From UHGV virus genome UHGV-1730386: a stretch of DNA of 14,943 nucleotides; one strand, given 5' to 3'. The DNA is from a virus. The number at the start of each line of letters is the position of its first letter. The first letter of the stretch is position 1. The notes beneath the pieces were generated by a model, which did not search any database, had not been told where the DNA came from, and saw only the letters and a program-made list of their open reading frames with translations. The translations under genes and the position numbers were made by a program. Below, in pieces: positions 1,929-12,028 of this stretch.

Positions 1929-4628
1929 TTAGTGGACTTCAAGCCACGATTTACCAACCTTACCAGTACCCGTTACCAAAGTATCCTTCTTCAGCCCCAA
2001 GTTTTTAGAAGCTTGACCATAATACCAGTCAGTTACTGCCTTAACTTCTGCTGTCATGCTTTCTGGACATTCCCAGCTTGTTTCGTCGTGGTAAGCACAA
2101 AGTAAACGAGCACCGATAGCTGGCTTACGACCATTTAGTTTCATCAAACCTTCATCAATCATACGACGACAAGCAAGGTTGATTGCTTCATTCTGAACTT
2201 GTGCTTCTGAACCCATCAACAGATAGTTCAAGAGTTTGTGTGGAGATTTACACCACAACCACGCCCCAGCAACCTGAACAAATCCACCTTTAGCAATTGC
2301 AGCAGTTTTACCAAAGACCTCTTCAAGAGCTTTCTTAGTTGCTTTAAAGTCAGCTTCTAAGTTATCAATCAGTTTCTTAATCTTCGGCAAACGAACAAAG
2401 TAAGTCTGCTTAGTCAATGCACCTTCTTGAGTAGTTGAAGCTTTGATGGTCTTAGCAAACTTCTCATCACCCGCACCGAACAGCAGTGCATAGATACCGT
2501 TTTTAGCTTTTTTACGACCCTTACTAATCTCGTGAAGAAGATTCTCATCCTGAGTCATACGACAAGTCAAGATATCCTGCTCATCATTCAAGCTGAAGTA
2601 AATACTGTTCAGTGTGTGAGCATCAGTGCCTGAATAGACTACGTACAAGTCGTTTTCAGAGTCATAACGCAGATACTTGTCAACTTCTGGGTTAAGGTAT
2701 TCGTCGAAGTGTTTGCAGTAATAACGACCATCTTCTTGACGAATAAACTCAATTTCTTCCTTACCTTCTGTTACTGCTTTGGTGAACTCTTTATCACCCA
2801 TAAAGTTACACAGTAACACAAGCTGTGCAGAGTTCATATCAACGGATACTACGTTGGTTCCTTCTTCACAAATCCAGACTGCCCTCATTGGTTCCCCGTA
2901 AACAGCAGCCCCAGAAGGTACGTTCACAATACCATACTGTGTCATACGACCAGTTGAAGTACCAAACACCATTGCACCAGCACTCAAGCGACCATCTGGA
3001 CGAATCTGGTTTAACCAACCTTTCTCGTCATCTTTTGAGTTCTCAATAGTTCTACGTCGGTGCATCAAAGTATAGTACTTCGCAATCTTTTGTCCAAGTT
3101 CACCTTCAATGGTGTCATAAGAAGATTCAGTAAGTTTAGGTGAAGTACGAATCAAGCAAGGCTCAAGCAAATCTGTGTACTTCCTAACAGACCAGTTATG
3201 CTCAATGTAATGAACCCCTTCATGCTCAATGTAGTTCAATCCACAACGTTCAACCATCTCATCCCACTTAGGATGTTTACGAATCATCTTCTTATTATCT
3301 TTGAAGCGACATACCTTGATTGGACGGTTATCAGAATCCTTTTTGTAGTTCCAATCATCAGGAATCCAGCCAACAGATTTCAAGTATTCCTTCACCACTG
3401 CAACTTGAGTCATACGTGAAACTTCAAACTCAATTGGTGTATAAGGTGCATCAACAAGACCTGTGTAACGGCTTGACTCCATTTCAAAGTGATTTACTAC
3501 GTGGTTATTGTAGTACTTCACAGTTTTAACTGTCTTAACTGGCTTCCAATCCTTACACTTCTTGCCAGCCTTAGCATTCAACTCATTGCAGATTGCACGA
3601 GCATCTTTCATTGCTACAAAACCTTCCCTGTACTCTTCACCAGTGACAGTGTTAGTTGGAGTGTAGCAATTACGTTTCTCAATGTTGAAAATCTTTGTAG
3701 TTGGTTTCCCATATGGCTTGATAGGGTACGTCTTCAGTTCCCCTTCACGCATCTGCTCACGATACTTTGTCTTTGGATACTTTGTGATACGTTTCAAACC
3801 ATCTACATGACCAAATGTTTCAACATACTCATTCCATGCCTTGGCAAACTCTTCACCAGTTACTTTACCTTTCGTCTTAATAGTCGGAGGTAAGAACGGT
3901 TCAACTTCAGAGGCTAACTCAGAAGTCATCTTATCCAGTTCTTCTACACAGGACTTCATAAGGTCAATGTTAGCTTTCCAACCATTAATAGCTTGTTGAC
4001 TCATCCAGAAAGAAGTCTCTTTAGCTCGCATGTAGGTTTCGTAAGTATCTACACCACACTTCTTAAGCTTAAGGTATTCATTATCCATAGCACGTTTTGC
4101 TTTGGCGTTGATTCGAATATCCTCAACAACACGGTTAAGAATATCAGCGTTCCACACACCCCACTCTTCAATCTCTGGTTTACGAACACCAACACGAGCA
4201 CCCCATGCAGCCAAGCCATGAGCACCTTTGTAACCTTTTGGTGTAGGTCTATCCATCCACTGCACACGAGATTGTATAAGTGAATCCTGAAAGAAGTCAC
4301 TCCAAGGTTTACACTTAGGATTATCAAAGTTCCACAGGTCAGGTGCAATATGGTTGAACACCCACCAGTCATAACCAAGACCATTGTGGATACAAAGGCG
4401 TTTGGCTTTCAATGCAAACTCCACACCTTCACGCAAACCACCTTTGATGTATTTTGTATACTTGTGACCAAGGATAGGCTCATCAGTGAAAACCCACACA
4501 GCAGGTTCATCACTATCATCTTTGTAATCTGCGAATGCCATAACGTGAGCTTTTGTAAACTCAAGCAGCAACCCGTCAGTTTCTGTATCACCAACCAAAT
4601 GTAAGTTTTCAAAATCTACATTGTTCAT
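1929..4628 (-). CDS. DNA polymerase, family A (Pol I / T7 gp5-like) with N-terminal 3'-5' exonuclease domain
   Basis: 899-aa ORF. Exo I motif VGDTETDGL and an HNGLGYD Exo II-like motif at the N-terminus. Polymerase motif A SVDMNSAQLVLL, motif B (O-helix) RKKAKNGIYALLFGAG, motif C YHDET. GAGGGAG RBS about 6 nt upstream of the ATG at 4628..4626. Confidence 0.92.
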   Translation of the reverse strand: MNNVDFENLHLVGDTETDGLLLEFTKAHVMAFADYKDDSDEPAVWVFTDEPILGHKYTKYIKGGLREGVEFALKAKRLCIHNGLGYDWWVFNHIAPDLWNFDNPKCKPWSDFFQDSLIQSRVQWMDRPTPKGYKGAHGLAAWGARVGVRKPEIEEWGVWNADILNRVVEDIRINAKAKRAMDNEYLKLKKCGVDTYETYMRAKETSFWMSQQAINGWKANIDLMKSCVEELDKMTSELASEVEPFLPPTIKTKGKVTGEEFAKAWNEYVETFGHVDGLKRITKYPKTKYREQMREGELKTYPIKPYGKPTTKIFNIEKRNCYTPTNTVTGEEYREGFVAMKDARAICNELNAKAGKKCKDWKPVKTVKTVKYYNNHVVNHFEMESSRYTGLVDAPYTPIEFEVSRMTQVAVVKEYLKSVGWIPDDWNYKKDSDNRPIKVCRFKDNKKMIRKHPKWDEMVERCGLNYIEHEGVHYIEHNWSVRKYTDLLEPCLIRTSPKLTESSYDTIEGELGQKIAKYYTLMHRRRTIENSKDDEKGWLNQIRPDGRLSAGAMVFGTSTGRMTQYGIVNVPSGAAVYGEPMRAVWICEEGTNVVSVDMNSAQLVLLCNFMGDKEFTKAVTEGKEEIEFIRQEDGRYYCKHFDEYLNPEVDKYLRYDSENDLYVVYSGTDAHTLNSIYFSLNDEQDILTCRMTQDENLLHEISKGRKKAKNGIYALLFGAGDEKFAKTIKASTTQEGALTKQTYFVRLPKIKKLIDNLEADFKATKKALEEVFGKTAAIAKGGFVQVAGAWLWCKSPHKLLNYLLMGSEAQVQNEAINLACRRMIDEGLMKLNGRKPAIGARLLCAYHDETSWECPESMTAEVKAVTDWYYGQASKNLGLKKDTLVTGTGKVGKSWLEVH

Positions 4629-6924: not shown

Positions 6925-7116
6925 ATGAGAGATAATAACTTGAAAGTTGTTGACCACCGTAGTGTAGAACTCTCATCTCTTTCTAAAGAAGTAATGATGG
7001 AGCGACTTGAAAGGGTCGCTTCTCGTCGGAAAGAGATTGCAGAAGAAATTCATGAATTAGATAAGATTGAGAATGGTCTTAAAGCAGAACTGCGTCGTAG
7101 AGGTGTAAATGGCTAA
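6925..7116 (+). CDS. hypothetical small charged/coiled-coil protein (63 aa)
   Basis: The track ORF starts at TTG 6919; I use the ATG at 6925. Sequence is Glu/Lys/Arg-rich and heptad-like. Its stop overlaps the primase-helicase start (ATGGCTAA, 7109..7116). Confidence 0.45.
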   Translation: MRDNNLKVVDHRSVELSSLSKEVMMERLERVASRRKEIAEEIHELDKIENGLKAELRRRGVNG

Positions 7117-9097
7117 ACCAAGAAAATTGAAAGAAGCTGGTCAATTTGTAGGTCATTGTGCATGTCCTAAATGTGATTCTTCAGATGCAGGTTCAATTTA
7201 TCATCACGACGACGACTCATATTCAATGACTTGTTTTAGTTGTGGTAAAGGTTTTCCAGAGTGGGATTTTGATAAAGGTCAAATTGTGAGCACAATGTCC
7301 ACAGGTTCTGATAGTAAAAATCGTAAGTTTCGTGGTATGGATTTAGATGATGTTAAAGAAAACCTCGAAGCAATGGATTTAAAAGACAGGAAGATTCCTG
7401 CAAAGGTTTTAGAACGTCTTGGTATTAAAGTTGACGTAGATGAGAATGGAGATATTGACGCTCATTTCTATCCAACTTATAAGAAGGATGAAGATGGGAA
7501 ATTGAAGCATGTTGGTTATCGAGTTCGTCACAAATACCCTGATGACCACCCTAAAGAACAGCTTCGTGGTAAGTTAAAAGACTTCTCAGGCGGTGTAGGT
7601 GATATTAAAGGTGAACTGGCGATGTTCGGTTCATGGATTGCACCTGAAGGTGGTAATCGCTTATTCATCTGGGAAGGTGAGATGGAATGTGCTACAGCAG
7701 TCTATATGACTTCTTTAGCAATTAAGGATAAGTCACGTAGAAAGAACTACTGTCACGTATCTGTCCCATCTGGTGCAAACGTTAAGTCTATCAAGGAGAA
7801 CTATCAGTACATCACATCCTTTGATGAGATTTACCTTTGCTTCGACAACGATGAAGCAGGTGCTAAGGTAACTAAGGAAGCTGCTGGTATCCTTCCTATT
7901 GAAAAGGTTCGACTGTTCCAGTATCCTGAAGGTGTTAAAGACCTTAGCGAGTGGTGGACTAAATTCTTTAAAGACAAAGATACAGTCTTAGAAGGGTTTA
8001 AGCAGAGAATCTATAATGCACCTCGTTACTGCCCTGCTGGTATTAAGAACTTTGCAGACGGTTTCGAAGCAATGAAGAATCGTGGTCAGATTCCTTTGAT
8101 TCCTTTTCCAGAATCTTTCGGGGATTTGAACAAGTTAACTTATGGTGGTTATGGGTTAGGCGAAATCACTACACTGGCTGCACCGTCATCTGTTGGTAAA
8201 TCTGCCTATACTCGTGAAATGATTTATACAGCATGGAAAGATACTGAGTACAACATTGGTGTAATTCCTGTAGAAGATACTTACGAAGAACTTATGGAAA
8301 TGCTCTGTGCAATCCATCTAAGTAAGCAGATTTCAGAGATTCCTTACGATGAGCGAGATTGGGATGAGCTAAAAGGAGCACATGCGGATTTGTCAAAAGG
8401 TCGTCGTATTCACATCGTAGACCATCAAGGGGCAATTGACCAAGACAACTTGCTAGAATTTGTTGACTATCTTGTTAACAGTCTTGATTGTAAGATTATC
8501 ATCCTTGACCCAATTACATTGGCTTTGTCACGCTCTGATACTGACGAAGAAGAAGTCCTGTCTGAACTGTTGCGTCGTTGCAAGCGTTATCAGTATGCTC
8601 AGGTAAACGTATGTCACGTTCGTAAGAGCGCAGGTGGTCAGAAAGCTAACTCTGAAGGTGGAGATATCTCTGAAGAAGATATCAAGGGTTCTGGTGCATA
8701 CTTCCAGATTTCTATGAACAACATTTTGTTAATGCGCAACAAGGTTGACCCAGACCCTGTTAAGAAAAACTTGACAAAAATCAAGTTAACTAAATGTCGT
8801 CGTCATGGTAAATCCACTGGTATTGCTGGTCACACTTGGTATAATCCAGAAACAGGCCGTCTTATCAAGGCTGCTGGTTGTGGTGTTGATATTGATGGTG
8901 CAGCAGAGAATATCCGTCAGCAGTATGGTATTGGTGATGCTGAAGACCATTACGATGATACCATGCCACACTATGAAGATGAAGCATTTGACCGTGATAC
9001 TGGAGAGTTGTATACTCAAGAGCAACGTCAGAGTTCTACAATTCCTCCTGCAATCAATGAGGATGGTGATGATGACTGCCCGTTTGAAACTGACTGA
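7109..9097 (+). CDS. bifunctional DNA primase-helicase (T7 gp4-like: zinc ribbon, TOPRIM primase, DnaB-family helicase)
   Basis: 662 aa. N-terminal zinc ribbon CACPKCDS...CFSCGKG. TOPRIM acidic motifs WEGEMECA and CFDNDEAG. Helicase Walker A AAPSSVGKSAY and Walker B IIILDPIT. Acidic C-terminus ending DDDCPFETD. Confidence 0.9.
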   Translation: MAKPRKLKEAGQFVGHCACPKCDSSDAGSIYHHDDDSYSMTCFSCGKGFPEWDFDKGQIVSTMSTGSDSKNRKFRGMDLDDVKENLEAMDLKDRKIPAKVLERLGIKVDVDENGDIDAHFYPTYKKDEDGKLKHVGYRVRHKYPDDHPKEQLRGKLKDFSGGVGDIKGELAMFGSWIAPEGGNRLFIWEGEMECATAVYMTSLAIKDKSRRKNYCHVSVPSGANVKSIKENYQYITSFDEIYLCFDNDEAGAKVTKEAAGILPIEKVRLFQYPEGVKDLSEWWTKFFKDKDTVLEGFKQRIYNAPRYCPAGIKNFADGFEAMKNRGQIPLIPFPESFGDLNKLTYGGYGLGEITTLAAPSSVGKSAYTREMIYTAWKDTEYNIGVIPVEDTYEELMEMLCAIHLSKQISEIPYDERDWDELKGAHADLSKGRRIHIVDHQGAIDQDNLLEFVDYLVNSLDCKIIILDPITLALSRSDTDEEEVLSELLRRCKRYQYAQVNVCHVRKSAGGQKANSEGGDISEEDIKGSGAYFQISMNNILLMRNKVDPDPVKKNLTKIKLTKCRRHGKSTGIAGHTWYNPETGRLIKAAGCGVDIDGAAENIRQQYGIGDAEDHYDDTMPHYEDEAFDRDTGELYTQEQRQSSTIPPAINEDGDDDCPFETD

Positions 9098-9350
9098 TAG
9101 TTATCTGAAGGAGGGCATCACGCCCTTCTATTCAGAAAATAGCACTAAAAAATTTGCAAAAGATTGCTTGACTAAGATTGAAGAGTTCGCTAAAGTACTA
9201 ATCAACAAGGGGCATGATGTTACTTATGAACATGAAAGCCGTGAAGATAAAGACTTGTTTGCACTGTCAATTGACAAAGCTGAAACAATTTATCTTTTTA
9301 CCTTGACTTTAAAAACATTTGAATATGAAATATATCGGAGCACAAAATGA
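9072..9350 (+). CDS. hypothetical protein (about 92 aa; start uncertain, overlaps the primase-helicase 3' end)
   Basis: The frame is open from inside the helicase gene to TGA 9348..9350. The only ATGs are at 9057/9063/9069/9072, before the helicase stop; GAGGA at 9060..9064 sits upstream of 9072. Its stop overlaps the next ATG (ATGA at 9347..9350). The track ORF 8805..9350 is an over-extension. Confidence 0.3.
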   Translation: MTARLKLTDSYLKEGITPFYSENSTKKFAKDCLTKIEEFAKVLINKGHDVTYEHESREDKDLFALSIDKAETIYLFTLTLKTFEYEIYRSTK

Positions 9351-9484
9351 AACACTCTAAAGCATTTGAAGCAGTATTTGGAGATTCCCTGAAAGCAACT
9401 GCTGGTAAGTCTGCTGAACATTACAAAACGAAGCGAGTTCGCACTGGTAAGACTGCTCGTAAAGCTGCCAAGAAAGCTGCTTAA
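9347..9484 (+). CDS. hypothetical small Lys/Ala-rich basic protein (45 aa)
   Basis: MKHSKAFEAVFGDSLKATAGKSAEHYKTKRVRTGKTARKAAKKAA. GGAG at 9337..9340 lies 6 nt upstream of the ATG, which overlaps the upstream stop. Below the length cut-off of the supplied track. Confidence 0.4.
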   Translation: MKHSKAFEAVFGDSLKATAGKSAEHYKTKRVRTGKTARKAAKKAA

Positions 9485-9489
9485 AATGT

Positions 9490-9518
9490 TTGACATGGGG
9501 GTATGAAGCATGTAAGAT
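9490..9518 (+). promoter_or_regulatory. candidate sigma70-like promoter upstream of the SSB-like gene (TTGACA-N17-TAAGAT)
   Basis: Perfect -35 TTGACA at 9490..9495, a 17-nt spacer, then TAAGAT at 9513..9518 (4/6 to TATAAT). Downstream RBS AGAAAGAGG precedes ATG 9572. Sequence match only. Confidence 0.4.
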
Positions 9519-9571
9519 TGTACTCCCAATAAGATTTGAATTGATAGTTAATTTGAGAAAGAGGTATTAAA

Positions 9572-10426
9572 ATGTCTAAAGTTGTTAAAATGAAATCTCC
9601 GGTAGAAAAATACAACGGTAAAGAACTTGAAACTTATCGTTACCTGCTGAAAGATGTTTGGTTCTACTACTTGAATACTATTCCACGTCCTCAGAAGGGC
9701 AAGTCTGTAGACAAACATTTCCCAGGCAAAGACTGTAATTACAGCGTTTCAATTCTGGCAAAAGACGGTAACAAGCTCTTTAAAGAGTTCACCAAGTCTA
9801 AAAAAAATCCAGATGGTTGGGATAAGGTCACTACAGAGACTGTTGATGCAGATGACTTTGAAGAGAAGTTTGGTTGTGAGCCTCCATTCGAAGCTGACAC
9901 TTATTACATCCTGAAGGTTAGCCGTTCAGCAGCTTACAAAGATGGTGCTGTATGGTCAGCAAAACAGAGTTTCCCTGTGATGCTGGTTGAAGAACTGAAC
10001 GGTAAACGTGTTGCGGTTAAGCAACCTATGAAGAAAATTAAGGCAGCAAAATCTGACAAGCATGACGATGACAAGACTTACGATGTTGTCTGTCCAGATA
10101 TTGCAGTCGGTAATGGTTCTTTTGGTAGTGTGATTCTTTCGACTCACTTCTACACCTTCGAAGGTAACGTTCTAACTAAGCCAATTCAGGAGCAGTTTAT
10201 CATTGATACTCTGGTTCCATACACTGGTGGTACTGGTGGTGCAACCGAGACTGAACTTGATGAAGACGAACTGGCACTGCTTGGTCTCGCAGGTGTTGAA
10301 GACAACGGTGAAATCTCTGAAGAAGATGCAAAAGATTCTGATGATGATAAAGGTGGTGACGACGATGACGACGACCTGCCAACACCGGATGATGACGACG
10401 AAGACTTCGAGACTGACGACGAATAA
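9572..10426 (+). CDS. putative single-stranded DNA-binding protein with acidic C-terminal tail (T7 gp2.5-like architecture)
   Basis: 284 aa with a long poly-Asp/Glu tail ending DDDDDDLPTPDDDDEDFETDDE. Sits between primase-helicase and exonuclease, as in T7-like replication modules. Has the best promoter-like sequence in the window upstream and a terminator downstream. Call rests on architecture and position, not on sequence identity. Confidence 0.5.
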   Translation: MSKVVKMKSPVEKYNGKELETYRYLLKDVWFYYLNTIPRPQKGKSVDKHFPGKDCNYSVSILAKDGNKLFKEFTKSKKNPDGWDKVTTETVDADDFEEKFGCEPPFEADTYYILKVSRSAAYKDGAVWSAKQSFPVMLVEELNGKRVAVKQPMKKIKAAKSDKHDDDKTYDVVCPDIAVGNGSFGSVILSTHFYTFEGNVLTKPIQEQFIIDTLVPYTGGTGGATETELDEDELALLGLAGVEDNGEISEEDAKDSDDDKGGDDDDDDLPTPDDDDEDFETDDE

Positions 10427-10446
10427 TAGTCAGTAACTAATACAAA

Positions 10447-10474
10447 GCCCTGTACAGAACGTATAGGGCTTTTT
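10447..10474 (+). terminator. candidate rho-independent terminator after the SSB-like gene
   Basis: Stem GCCCTGTAC (10447..10455) pairs with GTATAGGGC (10461..10469), 9 bp including one G-U, around a 5-nt loop AGAAC, followed by TTTTT (10470..10474). Confidence 0.5.
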
Positions 10475-10488
10475 CGTATGGAGGTACA

Positions 10489-11529
10489 ATGAATCAGTAT
10501 ACACTTACAAAGCTCCCAGAAAGCGTTACACACGTCTTCATTGACGCAGACAGCATTGCTTACAAGGGTGCTTGTGTAGTTGAAAAAGCAAAGTACAAGT
10601 ATGTGAATAAACTTACCGCTGAAGAGTCTGATGACTTTGATAGTGCTAAGTTAGCTTCACAATGGTTAGCTGACCAGAGAGTTCTTACAGAGGAACTTGG
10701 ACTTGACTTTGATGAAGATGAGTGGGAAAGACAGACTTGGAAGGAAGCCAAGAGCGAAAAAGAAGCTATTATGGCAACTCAGCAGGTTCTTCAAGAATGG
10801 CTTAAAGTTGTCGGTAAAGAGCGTCAATGGATGGGTTACCTGACTGAGAAGGGTGTTCACAAACACAAAGACATTAAAGGTCTTGAACATCAATATCAAG
10901 GTAACAGGAAAGATGCGGTGACACCTACGCACCTAGTTGCTTGTCGTGAGTATCTTCTGTCACGACCTGAGTTTAAGCTTCTCAAAGGTGGCTTTGAAGC
11001 TGACTCAATCGTTATTGCAAAAGCTGAAAAGATGGGTAAAAAAGCTGCTCTTATGAGTATTGATAAAGACCTTCGTCAAGCTGAAGGTACATATTGTATT
11101 GATATGACTTATGAGAAAGCACCACTTATCTTTATTGCTGATAATAACATTGGAGAGATTTGGGATTGCCCTATCAAATCCAAACCAAAAGCTAAGAAGA
11201 CAGTCGGAGTAGGCTTCAAATTCCTCTGCTATCAAGCTGTAGCAGGTGATAATGCAGATAACTACTTTGGCCTTAAGGGTGCTGGTAAAGTTGCTGTAAT
11301 GAACGCTCTGGAAGGTAAAACAACCTATAGAGAATGTTTAGATGCTGTTTATGAGTTGTATGCAAAGAAAGACTCTTACACCTATGTGTCGTGGGACGGT
11401 CAAACAATTACCAGAACACCTTTAGAGTTAATGCACCAGCACTTCTGGATTGCATACCAAGAGCGAAATCCAAAGGATGATTTCACGTTTGAAAAATATG
11501 GATGGGAGCCTACTATGAATGAAGATTAA
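10489..11529 (+). CDS. 5'-3' exonuclease / flap endonuclease (T7 gp6 / RNase H-like, PIN-fold family)
   Basis: 346 aa. N-terminal acidic motif VFIDADSIAYKG, central IDKDLRQAEG, and C-terminal AGDNADNYFGLKGAGKVAV, arranged like the metal-binding Asp clusters and helix-hairpin-helix region of phage 5'-3' exonucleases. GGAGG RBS at 10480..10484. Confidence 0.7.
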   Translation: MNQYTLTKLPESVTHVFIDADSIAYKGACVVEKAKYKYVNKLTAEESDDFDSAKLASQWLADQRVLTEELGLDFDEDEWERQTWKEAKSEKEAIMATQQVLQEWLKVVGKERQWMGYLTEKGVHKHKDIKGLEHQYQGNRKDAVTPTHLVACREYLLSRPEFKLLKGGFEADSIVIAKAEKMGKKAALMSIDKDLRQAEGTYCIDMTYEKAPLIFIADNNIGEIWDCPIKSKPKAKKTVGVGFKFLCYQAVAGDNADNYFGLKGAGKVAVMNALEGKTTYRECLDAVYELYAKKDSYTYVSWDGQTITRTPLELMHQHFWIAYQERNPKDDFTFEKYGWEPTMNED

Positions 11530-12028
11530 AGGTTTCGGTAATTGTCCTGTTTATGGTCATTGGGTATCTTTATGCGGGGAAGTTGACCCCGCTAAACTGT
11601 TCGGGTTTGTCTACCTAGTCTATTGTAAGAAAACTGGACAGTATTACATTGGTAAAAAACAGTTCAATAGTATCACTAAGAAGAAGGTTGCTGGAAAGAC
11701 CAGACGTAAGGTTGTCACCAAAGAGAGTGACTGGATGGTTTACCAGACTTCTTCTGAGTACATTAAGAAAGATATTGAAGCTTTTGGTATGAAAGAGTTT
11801 GACTTCTACATTGTGCAAACCTATTATACACGAGGTGGATTAGTCTACGGAGAAGCAAATCTCCAACATAAGTTCGATGTTATGACAAAAAGGATTGACT
11901 CGAAACTCAGACTCTTCTACAATGCCAATATTGCAGCTATCAAGTTCCTTACAAAAGAAACTTATGAAGAAGCTGAGAAACGTATTAACAAAATCATGAA
12001 ACTTAACGAGAGAGAAAATCATGTTTAA
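11519..12028 (+). CDS. putative GIY-YIG family nuclease (single-domain, 169 aa)
   Basis: FGFVYLVYCKKTGQYYIGKKQF matches the GIY-(10-11 aa)-YIG pattern with VYL replacing GIY. It is followed by a basic stretch with Arg (KTRRK), then FDFYIVQ, a conserved-position Glu (GEANL) and YNAN (the GYN-like Asn). Start overlaps the exonuclease stop by 11 nt. Confidence 0.5.
   Translation: MKIKGFGNCPVYGHWVSLCGEVDPAKLFGFVYLVYCKKTGQYYIGKKQFNSITKKKVAGKTRRKVVTKESDWMVYQTSSEYIKKDIEAFGMKEFDFYIVQTYYTRGGLVYGEANLQHKFDVMTKRIDSKLRLFYNANIAAIKFLTKETYEEAEKRINKIMKLNERENHV

Follow-up and report, generated by a model that had tools for sequence, protein, structure and literature searches.

A 45-codon open reading frame (ORF) in the window, i.e., the whole 14,943-nucleotide stretch of viral DNA that was analysed (UHGV virus genome UHGV-1730386), is almost certainly a genuine protein-coding gene, as judged from its comparison with related phages. 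Sequence similarity shows it to be an orthologue of ORF103 of phage Felix O1 and a member of PHROG 4424, so that the gene belongs to an already catalogued family of hypothetical proteins that is confined to Felix O1-like phages. We tentatively propose that its product is a polyanion-binding accessory factor of the phage DNA-metabolism/replication module, a reading that we put forward at somewhat less than even confidence.

The reading frame was read directly from the sequence and runs from an ATG at 9347-9349 to a TAA stop codon at 9482-9484 (Table 1). The preliminary description had pointed to a well-spaced GGAG and to an ATGA overlap with the upstream frame, and both are present as described; the overlap implies that the 45-aa gene is probably translationally coupled to the 93-aa ORF. 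The product is MKHSKAFEAVFGDSLKATAGKSAEHYKTKRVRTGKTARKAAKKAA, a protein of 4.9 kDa that contains 13 lysine and arginine residues (10 Lys, 3 Arg) and 3 aspartate and glutamate residues. With a net charge of +10 and a pI of 10.6 it is indeed very basic, as had been claimed, and it has neither cysteines nor a hydrophobic segment. The interval 8000-11000 contains 27 ORFs that reach 30 aa or more, so a length of 45 codons is by itself not above chance, and the significance of the small ORF comes from the comparative evidence only. The window DNA is AT-rich, and short ORFs are common in it.

Table 1. Features of the window discussed in the text
Feature	Position	Strand	Basis or remark
Family A DNA polymerase	1929-4628	other strand	
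140-aa ORF, 267-aa ORF, and dNMP kinase		+	PHROG; same gene run as the helicase
T7-gp4-like primase/helicase	7109-9097	+	PHROG
Promoter-like site TTGACC-17-TATACT, 10/12	8988..9016	+	within the primase/helicase gene, at its 3' end
Upstream partner, 93 aa, PHROG 4982 (Felix O1 ORF102)	9069..9350	+	annotated in relatives
Shine-Dalgarno sequence GGAG	9337..9340	+	6 nt 5' of ATG 9347
ATGA start/stop overlap with the 93-aa ORF	9347..9350	+	upstream TGA at 9348-9350
Small protein-coding gene, 45 aa	9347..9484	+	ORF scan, PHROG 4424, annotated homologues, pN/pS
Sigma-70-type promoter-like site TTGACA-17-TAAGAT, 10/12	9490..9518	+	6 nt past the stop, 5' of the 284-aa gene
Conserved hairpin, 11-bp stem	9496..9528	+	per-lineage folding
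284-aa protein with long acidic C-terminal tail, PHROG 3877			after the promoter-like site 9490..9518
gp6-like exonuclease			next after the 284-aa gene

The window region shares 99.5% identity with Shigella phage ESh22, and its identity to Citrobacter phage Moogle and to a large number of other Shigella and Citrobacter phages (Ounavirinae, Mooglevirus) is about 85%; by these values the window is assigned to a Mooglevirus phage of the Ounavirinae. Homologues of the 45-aa ORF are annotated as hypothetical proteins in four phages: ESh22 (URY12818.1), Moogle (CPT_Moogle29 / YP_009145672.1, where the ribosome-binding site is annotated as well), Pectobacterium phage Arno162 (orf116, AZV02156.1), and the type phage Felix O1 (ORF103, YP_001504375.1, 49 aa). 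The word "unannotated" in the preliminary description is thus right for the supplied, size-limited ORF track and wrong for the public records of these four phages. The gene is not a discovery because the RefSeq record of Felix O1 has listed ORF103 for years. The match to PHROG 4424, whose label is "unknown function", covers the full product (residues 1-45 on profile positions 1-45 of 49; E 4.1e-27, 95 bits). Matches obtained by tblastn were found in 262-263 phage records, almost all of them Felixounavirus, Mooglevirus, or Suspvirus and four of them Pectobacterium phages; phages of Escherichia, Salmonella, Shigella, Citrobacter, and Pectobacterium are represented. Felix O1 ORF103 is a full-length homologue with 80% identity that shares the ATGA coupling, the core motif, and the position between ORF102 and ORF104, but it ends in KAASKDKHNFQ (49 aa), whereas the window protein ends in KAAKKAA (45 aa).

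The conservation of the ORF and its start codon in relatives, which had been suggested as a test, speaks clearly in favour of the gene. The ORF is intact in all 31 loci that were first collected, in three metagenomic loci, and in Felix O1. Every Felix-, Moogle-, and SUSP1-type locus examined retains the ATG together with its Shine-Dalgarno sequence and the ATGA overlap; the overlap is found in all 18 distinct sequences of these types and in the metagenomic relative L032, while in Arno162 and L033 an upstream TAA stop codon sits 2 nt 5' of the ATG instead. Likewise, each locus of the Felix, Moogle, and SUSP1 types carries CGGAG, as does L032, with AGAGG in its place in Arno162 and L033. Over the first 40 codons of the 18 distinct Felix-, Moogle-, and SUSP1-type sequences, the variable columns are distributed over the three codon positions as 8/5/29, i.e., 29 of the 42 fall on third positions. 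The pooled pN/pS ratio is 0.14 in the frame of the ORF vs. 1.2 and 4.1 when the two remaining sense frames are read, and pairwise values stay between 0.09 and 0.35 even at a pS of about 0.7, which is near saturation; amino-acid identity of 60% is kept at saturated synonymous divergence. These ratios show that purifying selection acts in the frame of the small ORF only. Of the six frames, this one alone is uninterrupted from end to end of the interval in each of the eight lineages checked, and an antisense ORF of 79 aa (9290-9529) that overlaps the small gene is interrupted by stop codons in 6 of the 8.

A non-functional ORF would have to be a product of chance, or its frame would have to be held open by conservation at the DNA or RNA level (a regulatory RNA or the coupling alone). 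Short ORFs are frequent in AT-rich sequence and the gene call is drawn wholly from comparison, which leaves this reading some room, but it is contradicted by the skew towards third codon positions, by a low pN/pS solely in the ORF frame, by the identity of the proteins despite saturated synonymous sites, and by the intact ORF, ATG, and Shine-Dalgarno sequence in every lineage. An Rfam search of the small-gene interval likewise gave no family match. The substitution pattern excludes a chance or non-coding origin, which we regard as scarcely conceivable. A programmed frameshift that fuses the 93-aa and 45-aa frames was also considered and was dropped because the overlap contains no slippery heptamer in any lineage. 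In the literature on Felix O1-like phages, no Ribo-seq, RNA-seq, or small-protein proteomics data were found.

The conserved part of the protein is its core, which consists of the first ~40 residues and is non-repetitive. It is described by the invariant motif SK.F..VFG.S..AT.GK.A..[YF]...KR[VI]R.GKTA[RK], which includes three invariant glycines (G12, G20, and G34) and is shared by the window protein and every full-length homologue that was aligned. The C-terminal end, on the other hand, is exchangeable: the KAAKKAA tail (residues 39-45) is specific to the Mooglevirus/phiSUSP1-like lineages, and other tails are KAASKDKHNFQ in Felixounavirus, DHQR or DHRK in the Pectobacterium phages, and KHKKSEK in L032. 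Despite these different tails, the net charge (+8 to +10) and the pI (10.1-11.1) are similar in all five lineages. The emphasis that had been placed on a KAAKKAA-type, histone-like tail is therefore not sustained since the tail is swapped for other sequences elsewhere in the family and it is the ~40-residue core and the charge that are conserved.

The likeness to histone-like Lys/Ala tails is limited to the composition of the last 7-11 residues of the window protein (KAAKKAA) and to its high positive charge. The C-terminal domain of histone H1 and the bacterial AlgP- and Hc1-type tails are long repeat arrays, whereas the window protein has one short, unconserved Lys/Ala stretch (a single run of about 7-11 residues with no visible tandem repetition) next to its non-repetitive core. 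A histone-like, DNA-condensing, or packaged internal protein that acts through this tail would account for the KAAKKAA end and the net charge in the window phage, but not for the single short tail, which has unrelated replacements in most family members, nor for the location of the gene in a replication operon rather than among the structural genes. Shotgun mass spectrometry of Felix O1 virions identified 16 ORF products and ORF103 was not among them, although VFGDSLK-type peptides should be detectable; this is a weak negative (PMC3185647). Altogether, we consider such a function highly improbable.

The degree of constraint on the small protein is best seen next to its neighbours. Its identity to the homologues in Felix O1, L032, and Arno162 is 80, 60, and 60%, respectively, compared with 93, 86, and 68% for the primase/helicase, 89, 70, and 52% for the exonuclease, 84, 75, and 44% for the 284-aa neighbour, and 36, 39, and 22% for the 93-aa partner. 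The constraint on the 45-aa protein is thus comparable to or above that on the 284-aa protein and the exonuclease and far above that on the 93-aa partner, which by these values is a fast-evolving protein. Such strong constraint argues for a specific interface rather than for generic electrostatic binding.

In the AlphaFold2 model of the 45-aa protein, which was built from an alignment of 13 sequences and has moderate confidence (mean pLDDT 74, pTM 0.33), two helices span residues 5-18 and 23-44. Helix 1 displays a small, conserved hydrophobic face formed by F7, V10, F11, and L15, and helix 2 is ringed by basic residues, with a low hydrophobic moment over residues 20-30. Because the three core glycines are invariant and the confidence of the model is modest, the peptide on its own could be disordered in part, adopting its fold only when it meets a specific partner. 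The GRAVY value is -0.88 and the hydrophobic moment does not exceed 0.36 over residues 1-20; high values at residues 31-35 arise only from the K/A tail. A membrane-active or holin-like role appears unlikely because a hydrophobic segment is lacking and the N-terminal helix has no strong amphipathic moment.

The 45-aa gene closes a plus-strand run that comprises the 140-aa ORF, the 267-aa ORF, the dNMP kinase, the primase/helicase, the 93-aa ORF, and finally the 45-aa gene itself. The first 29 nt of the 93-aa ORF lie within the 3' end of the primase/helicase gene. The order primase/helicase, ORF of about 93-107 aa, ORF of 45-46 aa, gene of about 285 aa, and exonuclease is the same in ESh22, Moogle, Felix O1, Arno162, and L032, and also in L033 up to the gene of about 285 aa, where that contig ends. 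In the loci examined, the 45-aa gene is always accompanied by the 93-aa gene. The 93-aa partner was confidently modelled with AlphaFold2 as a beta-alpha-beta4 (alpha+beta) domain (pLDDT 85), for which a structure search with Foldseek returned mixed generic alpha+beta domains and no significant or diagnostic match.

The helicase, the acidic-tail gene, and the exonuclease recur in Erwinia phage phiEa21-4 (Kolesnikvirus), with only 102 nt separating the helicase from the acidic-tail gene and without either of the small genes. Similarly, the 284-aa gene was found in 302 phage records, 29 of them from Erwinia phages, and the small gene in 262, none of them from Erwinia phages. Judging from this distribution, the 93-aa and 45-aa genes behave as a co-inherited accessory pair and not as core parts of the replisome; the pair would lie outside the minimal replisome because phiEa21-4 keeps the replication genes without it.

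As to the 284-aa neighbour, it was considered whether it is a single-stranded DNA-binding protein (SSB) of the T7 gp2.5 type, but both single-sequence and profile searches of the PDB yielded low-complexity acidic matches only, so that an "SSB-like" designation would derive from its position and acidic tail alone. In Felix O1, the flanking ORFs 101 and 104 reach maximal expression at 25 min, and the RT-PCR table of the same study does not include ORF102 and ORF103 (PMC3185647).

Searches for a function of the small protein returned few leads. Pfam, NCBIfam, and PADLOC gave no match for the 45-aa peptide, the 93-aa partner, or the 284-aa protein, Foldseek gave zero matches when the 45-aa model was compared with the PDB, and no paper that gives a role for an ORF103-type protein was found in the literature. 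A profile search of 1.84 billion representatives, the full set at 50% identity for about 15 billion proteins, added only two genuine clusters (L032-type and Pectobacterium-type), each of which belongs to the same group of phages; two other matches turned out to be repeat artefacts.

When the small-protein family was used for a profile search of the PDB, only a match at chance level was obtained. This lead was a tandem chain of ribosomal protein eL39 (E 0.093), where R-x-R-T-G-x-T-x-R and R-L-R-T-G-N-T-I-R look alike over a short stretch. eL39 (PF00832) is of similar length (45-51 aa) and is also very basic, but it is not homologous to the 45-aa protein by any test. The matched chain is a tandem duplicate with a per-domain E-value of 66, none of 13 family members matched PF00832 even at E-values up to 10, hhalign against the eL39 alignment gave a probability of 0.5%, and Smith-Waterman scores (calculated with an H. 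marismortui sequence) were similar to those of shuffled sequences, with z-scores between -0.7 and 1.3.

With these results in hand, we tentatively favour an accessory factor that acts inside the infected cell beside the replication proteins. The basic C-terminal half would bind a polyanion, which could be DNA, RNA, or an acidic protein surface, and the conserved F/V/F/L face near the N-terminus would provide the contact with a protein, for which the co-translated 93-aa product is the most plausible candidate, with the 45-aa gene being read by translational coupling from the same mRNA as the 93-aa gene. This proposal is based on the charge of +10, the basic helix 2, the hydrophobic face of helix 1, the co-translation, the location in an early/middle operon, and the fact that the protein is not among the virion proteins identified. 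Binding to nucleic acid is plausible from the charge alone. Small inhibitors that bind proteins, however, typically carry a high positive charge as well.

The main rival to this accessory-factor proposal is a host-directed inhibitor or anti-defence factor, i.e., a micro-protein for host takeover that, alone or with the 93-aa partner, would inhibit a conserved host protein. Small phage proteins of this kind have precedents in several systems: ORF104 of phage 77 targets the helicase loader DnaI, T7 gp2 targets RNA polymerase, and lambda Kil targets FtsZ. The accessory nature of the pair, which is absent from phiEa21-4 and has no match in the 29 Erwinia records with the same replication genes, would fit this explanation, as would the very fast evolution of the 93-aa partner, which is reminiscent of arms-race genes, and the location in an early/middle operon. 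Tight constraint together with the invariant glycines further suggests a specific, conserved interface. On the other hand, no similarity to a known inhibitor or defence-related family appeared in the searches that were run. In addition, the small inhibitors of DNA-binding host proteins that have been characterised are for the most part acidic mimics of DNA, which a peptide with a charge of +10 does not resemble. A role in host takeover is therefore regarded as possible but doubtful.

A bolder proposal is that the 45-aa protein and the fast-evolving 93-aa protein constitute a two-gene accessory cassette, so far overlooked, that belongs to the T7-like replisomes of myoviruses and in which the invariant basic micro-protein would be a specific adaptor. 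It would tune the replisome through DNA or RNA or through the acidic C-terminal tails ([PG]F-x-TE) that co-evolve in the helicase and the 284-aa protein, or else it would neutralise a conserved host factor or a defence system. We consider this cassette unlikely, yet if it were true it would amount to a new functional class of replisome-associated micro-proteins.

Small accessory and takeover proteins are a familiar component of phage replication modules, as exemplified by the small proteins encoded by genes 1.x-5.x of T7 and by ORF104 of phage 77. The 45-aa protein resembles them in its size class, in being dispensable in some relatives, and in its place among T7-like replication genes (a gp4-like primase/helicase, a family A polymerase, and a gp6-like exonuclease), but no similarity in sequence or fold to any of them was detected. 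The case illustrates that cut-offs on ORF size hide real genes, although the practical value of the finding is modest. Its importance would grow only if a specific role at the replisome or on a host factor were shown experimentally. Of the proteins encoded in the replication region of Felix O1-like phages, which are used for Salmonella typing and biocontrol, the 45-aa protein is one of the better conserved. As a peptide of 45 residues is cheap to make and the gene is easy to knock out, the system is tractable for studying small accessory proteins beside a T7-type replisome.

The small gene is followed by a hairpin (Table 1) that starts 12 nt after its stop codon and whose loop and 3' arm contain the -10 hexamer of the promoter-like site located there. 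The hairpin was assessed by folding each lineage separately and not by RNAalifold on an alignment. Folding z-scores range from -2.4 to -4.3 in five lineages, in which the arms differ in sequence yet stay complementary. When RNAalifold was applied to an ungapped MAFFT alignment of the hairpin region nothing was found, since the arms of one lineage do not line up with those of another. The hairpin may form the 3' end or the terminator of the small-gene transcript. phiEa21-4 has both promoter and hairpin directly after the helicase stop codon, without the small genes, and in L032 the peptide is present and the hairpin absent.

This arrangement raises the question of a third function, namely that of an RNA-binding regulator, whose basic helix would bind the stem-loop in read-through mRNA and tune termination, processing, or stability, much as the arginine-rich-motif peptide of the lambda N type does on boxB. 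The lineage-specific hairpin with complementary arms immediately past the stop codon in five lineages would be compatible with such a regulator, as would a C-terminal half in which Lys and Arg abound on every face and the observation that L032, the sole lineage without the hairpin, encodes a peptide more divergent than that of any other Enterobacteriaceae-type locus. However, the hairpin does not need the peptide, as phiEa21-4 keeps it without the small gene, and the peptide of L032 occurs without the hairpin. Moreover, with 3 Arg vs. 10 Lys the protein hardly fits a classical arginine-rich motif, and the arm sequences vary by lineage while the core of the peptide is invariant. A regulator of this type is hence very unlikely.

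Transcription of the small genes could start upstream of both. The site at 8988..9016 is a candidate promoter for the two of them, and its sequence is that of the proposed Felix O1 promoter "P102" (TTGACC-N17-TATACT, in the 3'-terminal part of the helicase gene; Whichard et al. 2010, PMC3185647). The site at 9490..9518 is intergenic and has a perfect -35 hexamer, and TTGACA recurs at the equivalent position in Moogle, in SUSP1-type and Felix-type phages, in Arno162, and in L033. The small gene had been described as lying just before the best promoter-like element in the window. It does adjoin this site, but the rank does not stand: the window contains eleven promoter-like sites of 10/12, so that the adjoining one is tied with ten others, and it falls below a site of 11/12 at position 1588 on the minus strand.

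The promoter-like sequence 3' of the small gene (the 45-aa basic ORF) lies within a conserved hairpin, whose 5' arm is held in the promoter spacer and whose loop and 3' arm hold the -10 hexamer. The same element was noted for the loci L002, L003, L006, L010, L033, and L036, and the z-scores for folding are -2.4 to -4.3 in five lineages. The arms are complementary in each lineage despite their differing sequence (GGGGGTA/TACTCCC, GGAGTAC/GTACTCC, AGAGTATCAA/TTGGTACTCT, GAAGGTAGTC/GATTACCTTC, and GGGAGTGTTAA/TTAACATTCCC). In the Erwinia phage phiEa21-4, which lacks both small genes, the hairpin is found immediately 3' of the helicase stop codon, and it is absent from the metagenomic locus L032. 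The promoter-bearing hairpin may serve as a weak terminator or 3'-end element and as a promoter in one. The same layout, in which a hairpin at the end of a gene encloses a promoter, is seen on the minus strand, where a second TTGACA lies directly past the stop codon of the DNA polymerase gene (1929) and the hairpin reaches -13.4 kcal/mol over 46 nt. This layout may be a recurring regulatory module in this phage group.

Coordinates of features in the window, or in the named locus of a relative
Feature	Position	Remarks
TTGACA, then strong hairpin	1923-1878	minus strand; GGTGCTC...GAGTACC
Candidate promoter P102	8988-9016	within helicase coding sequence
93-aa gene	9069-9350	Felix O1 ORF102; PHROG 4982
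C-terminus of primase/helicase	9071-9097	
Promoter-like element in conserved hairpin	9490-9528	TTGACA-17-TAAGAT; 3' of small gene
Same element, L036	2855-2900	
C-terminus of 284-aa protein	10391-10426	
HNH/'NAD synthetase' protein	11519-12028	slot past exonuclease; PHROG 447/7363; likewise in ESh22
SegE-type GIY-YIG protein, L032	6163-6660	slot past exonuclease

Upstream, the 93-aa gene shares 29 nt with the helicase gene, and translation of the small gene is coupled to that of the 93-aa gene. The 93-aa protein shares 36% identity with its Felix O1 counterpart, as against 80-93% for the neighbours, and on sequence comparison the gene is evolving much faster than every one of them. Its structural model is a beta-alpha-beta4 domain with a confident fold (pLDDT 85), for which no diagnostic match was found.

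The primase/helicase and the 284-aa 'hypothetical protein' both end in an acidic run followed by a common short motif, which co-varies by lineage between the two proteins (helicase/284-aa protein: PFETD/DFETDDE in the window, PFETE/DFDTED in Felix O1, PFETE/GFDTEDDDE in L032, GFQTE/GFQTE in the Pectobacterium phage Arno162, and PFRTE/PFKTE in phiEa21-4). In phage T7, gp4 and gp2.5 carry acidic, Phe-terminated tails that compete for the polymerase. The shared motif resembles these tails and by analogy suggests that the 284-aa protein is the phage SSB, an identity for which sequence searches gave no confirmation. Further downstream, the endonuclease-type genes just past the exonuclease differ among relatives, as would fit a slot where mobile endonucleases often insert (a hot spot).

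In tblastn searches, the Felix O1-type small protein also matched, at 73% identity, Staphylococcus phage SA1 (GU169904.1, a 147-kb record; 103180-103290) and two 'Campylobacter' phage records; mis-assembly or contamination is the probable source of the Felix O1-like sequence in these records. In protein P0014 of Salmonella phage GE_vB_7A (MG969404.1), a variant form of the small protein, the tail is frameshifted (KLHVKQLLKISTTSSN), and in the same record the 284-aa gene is broken into two pieces (tblastn); these anomalies likely stem from sequencing errors rather than biology.
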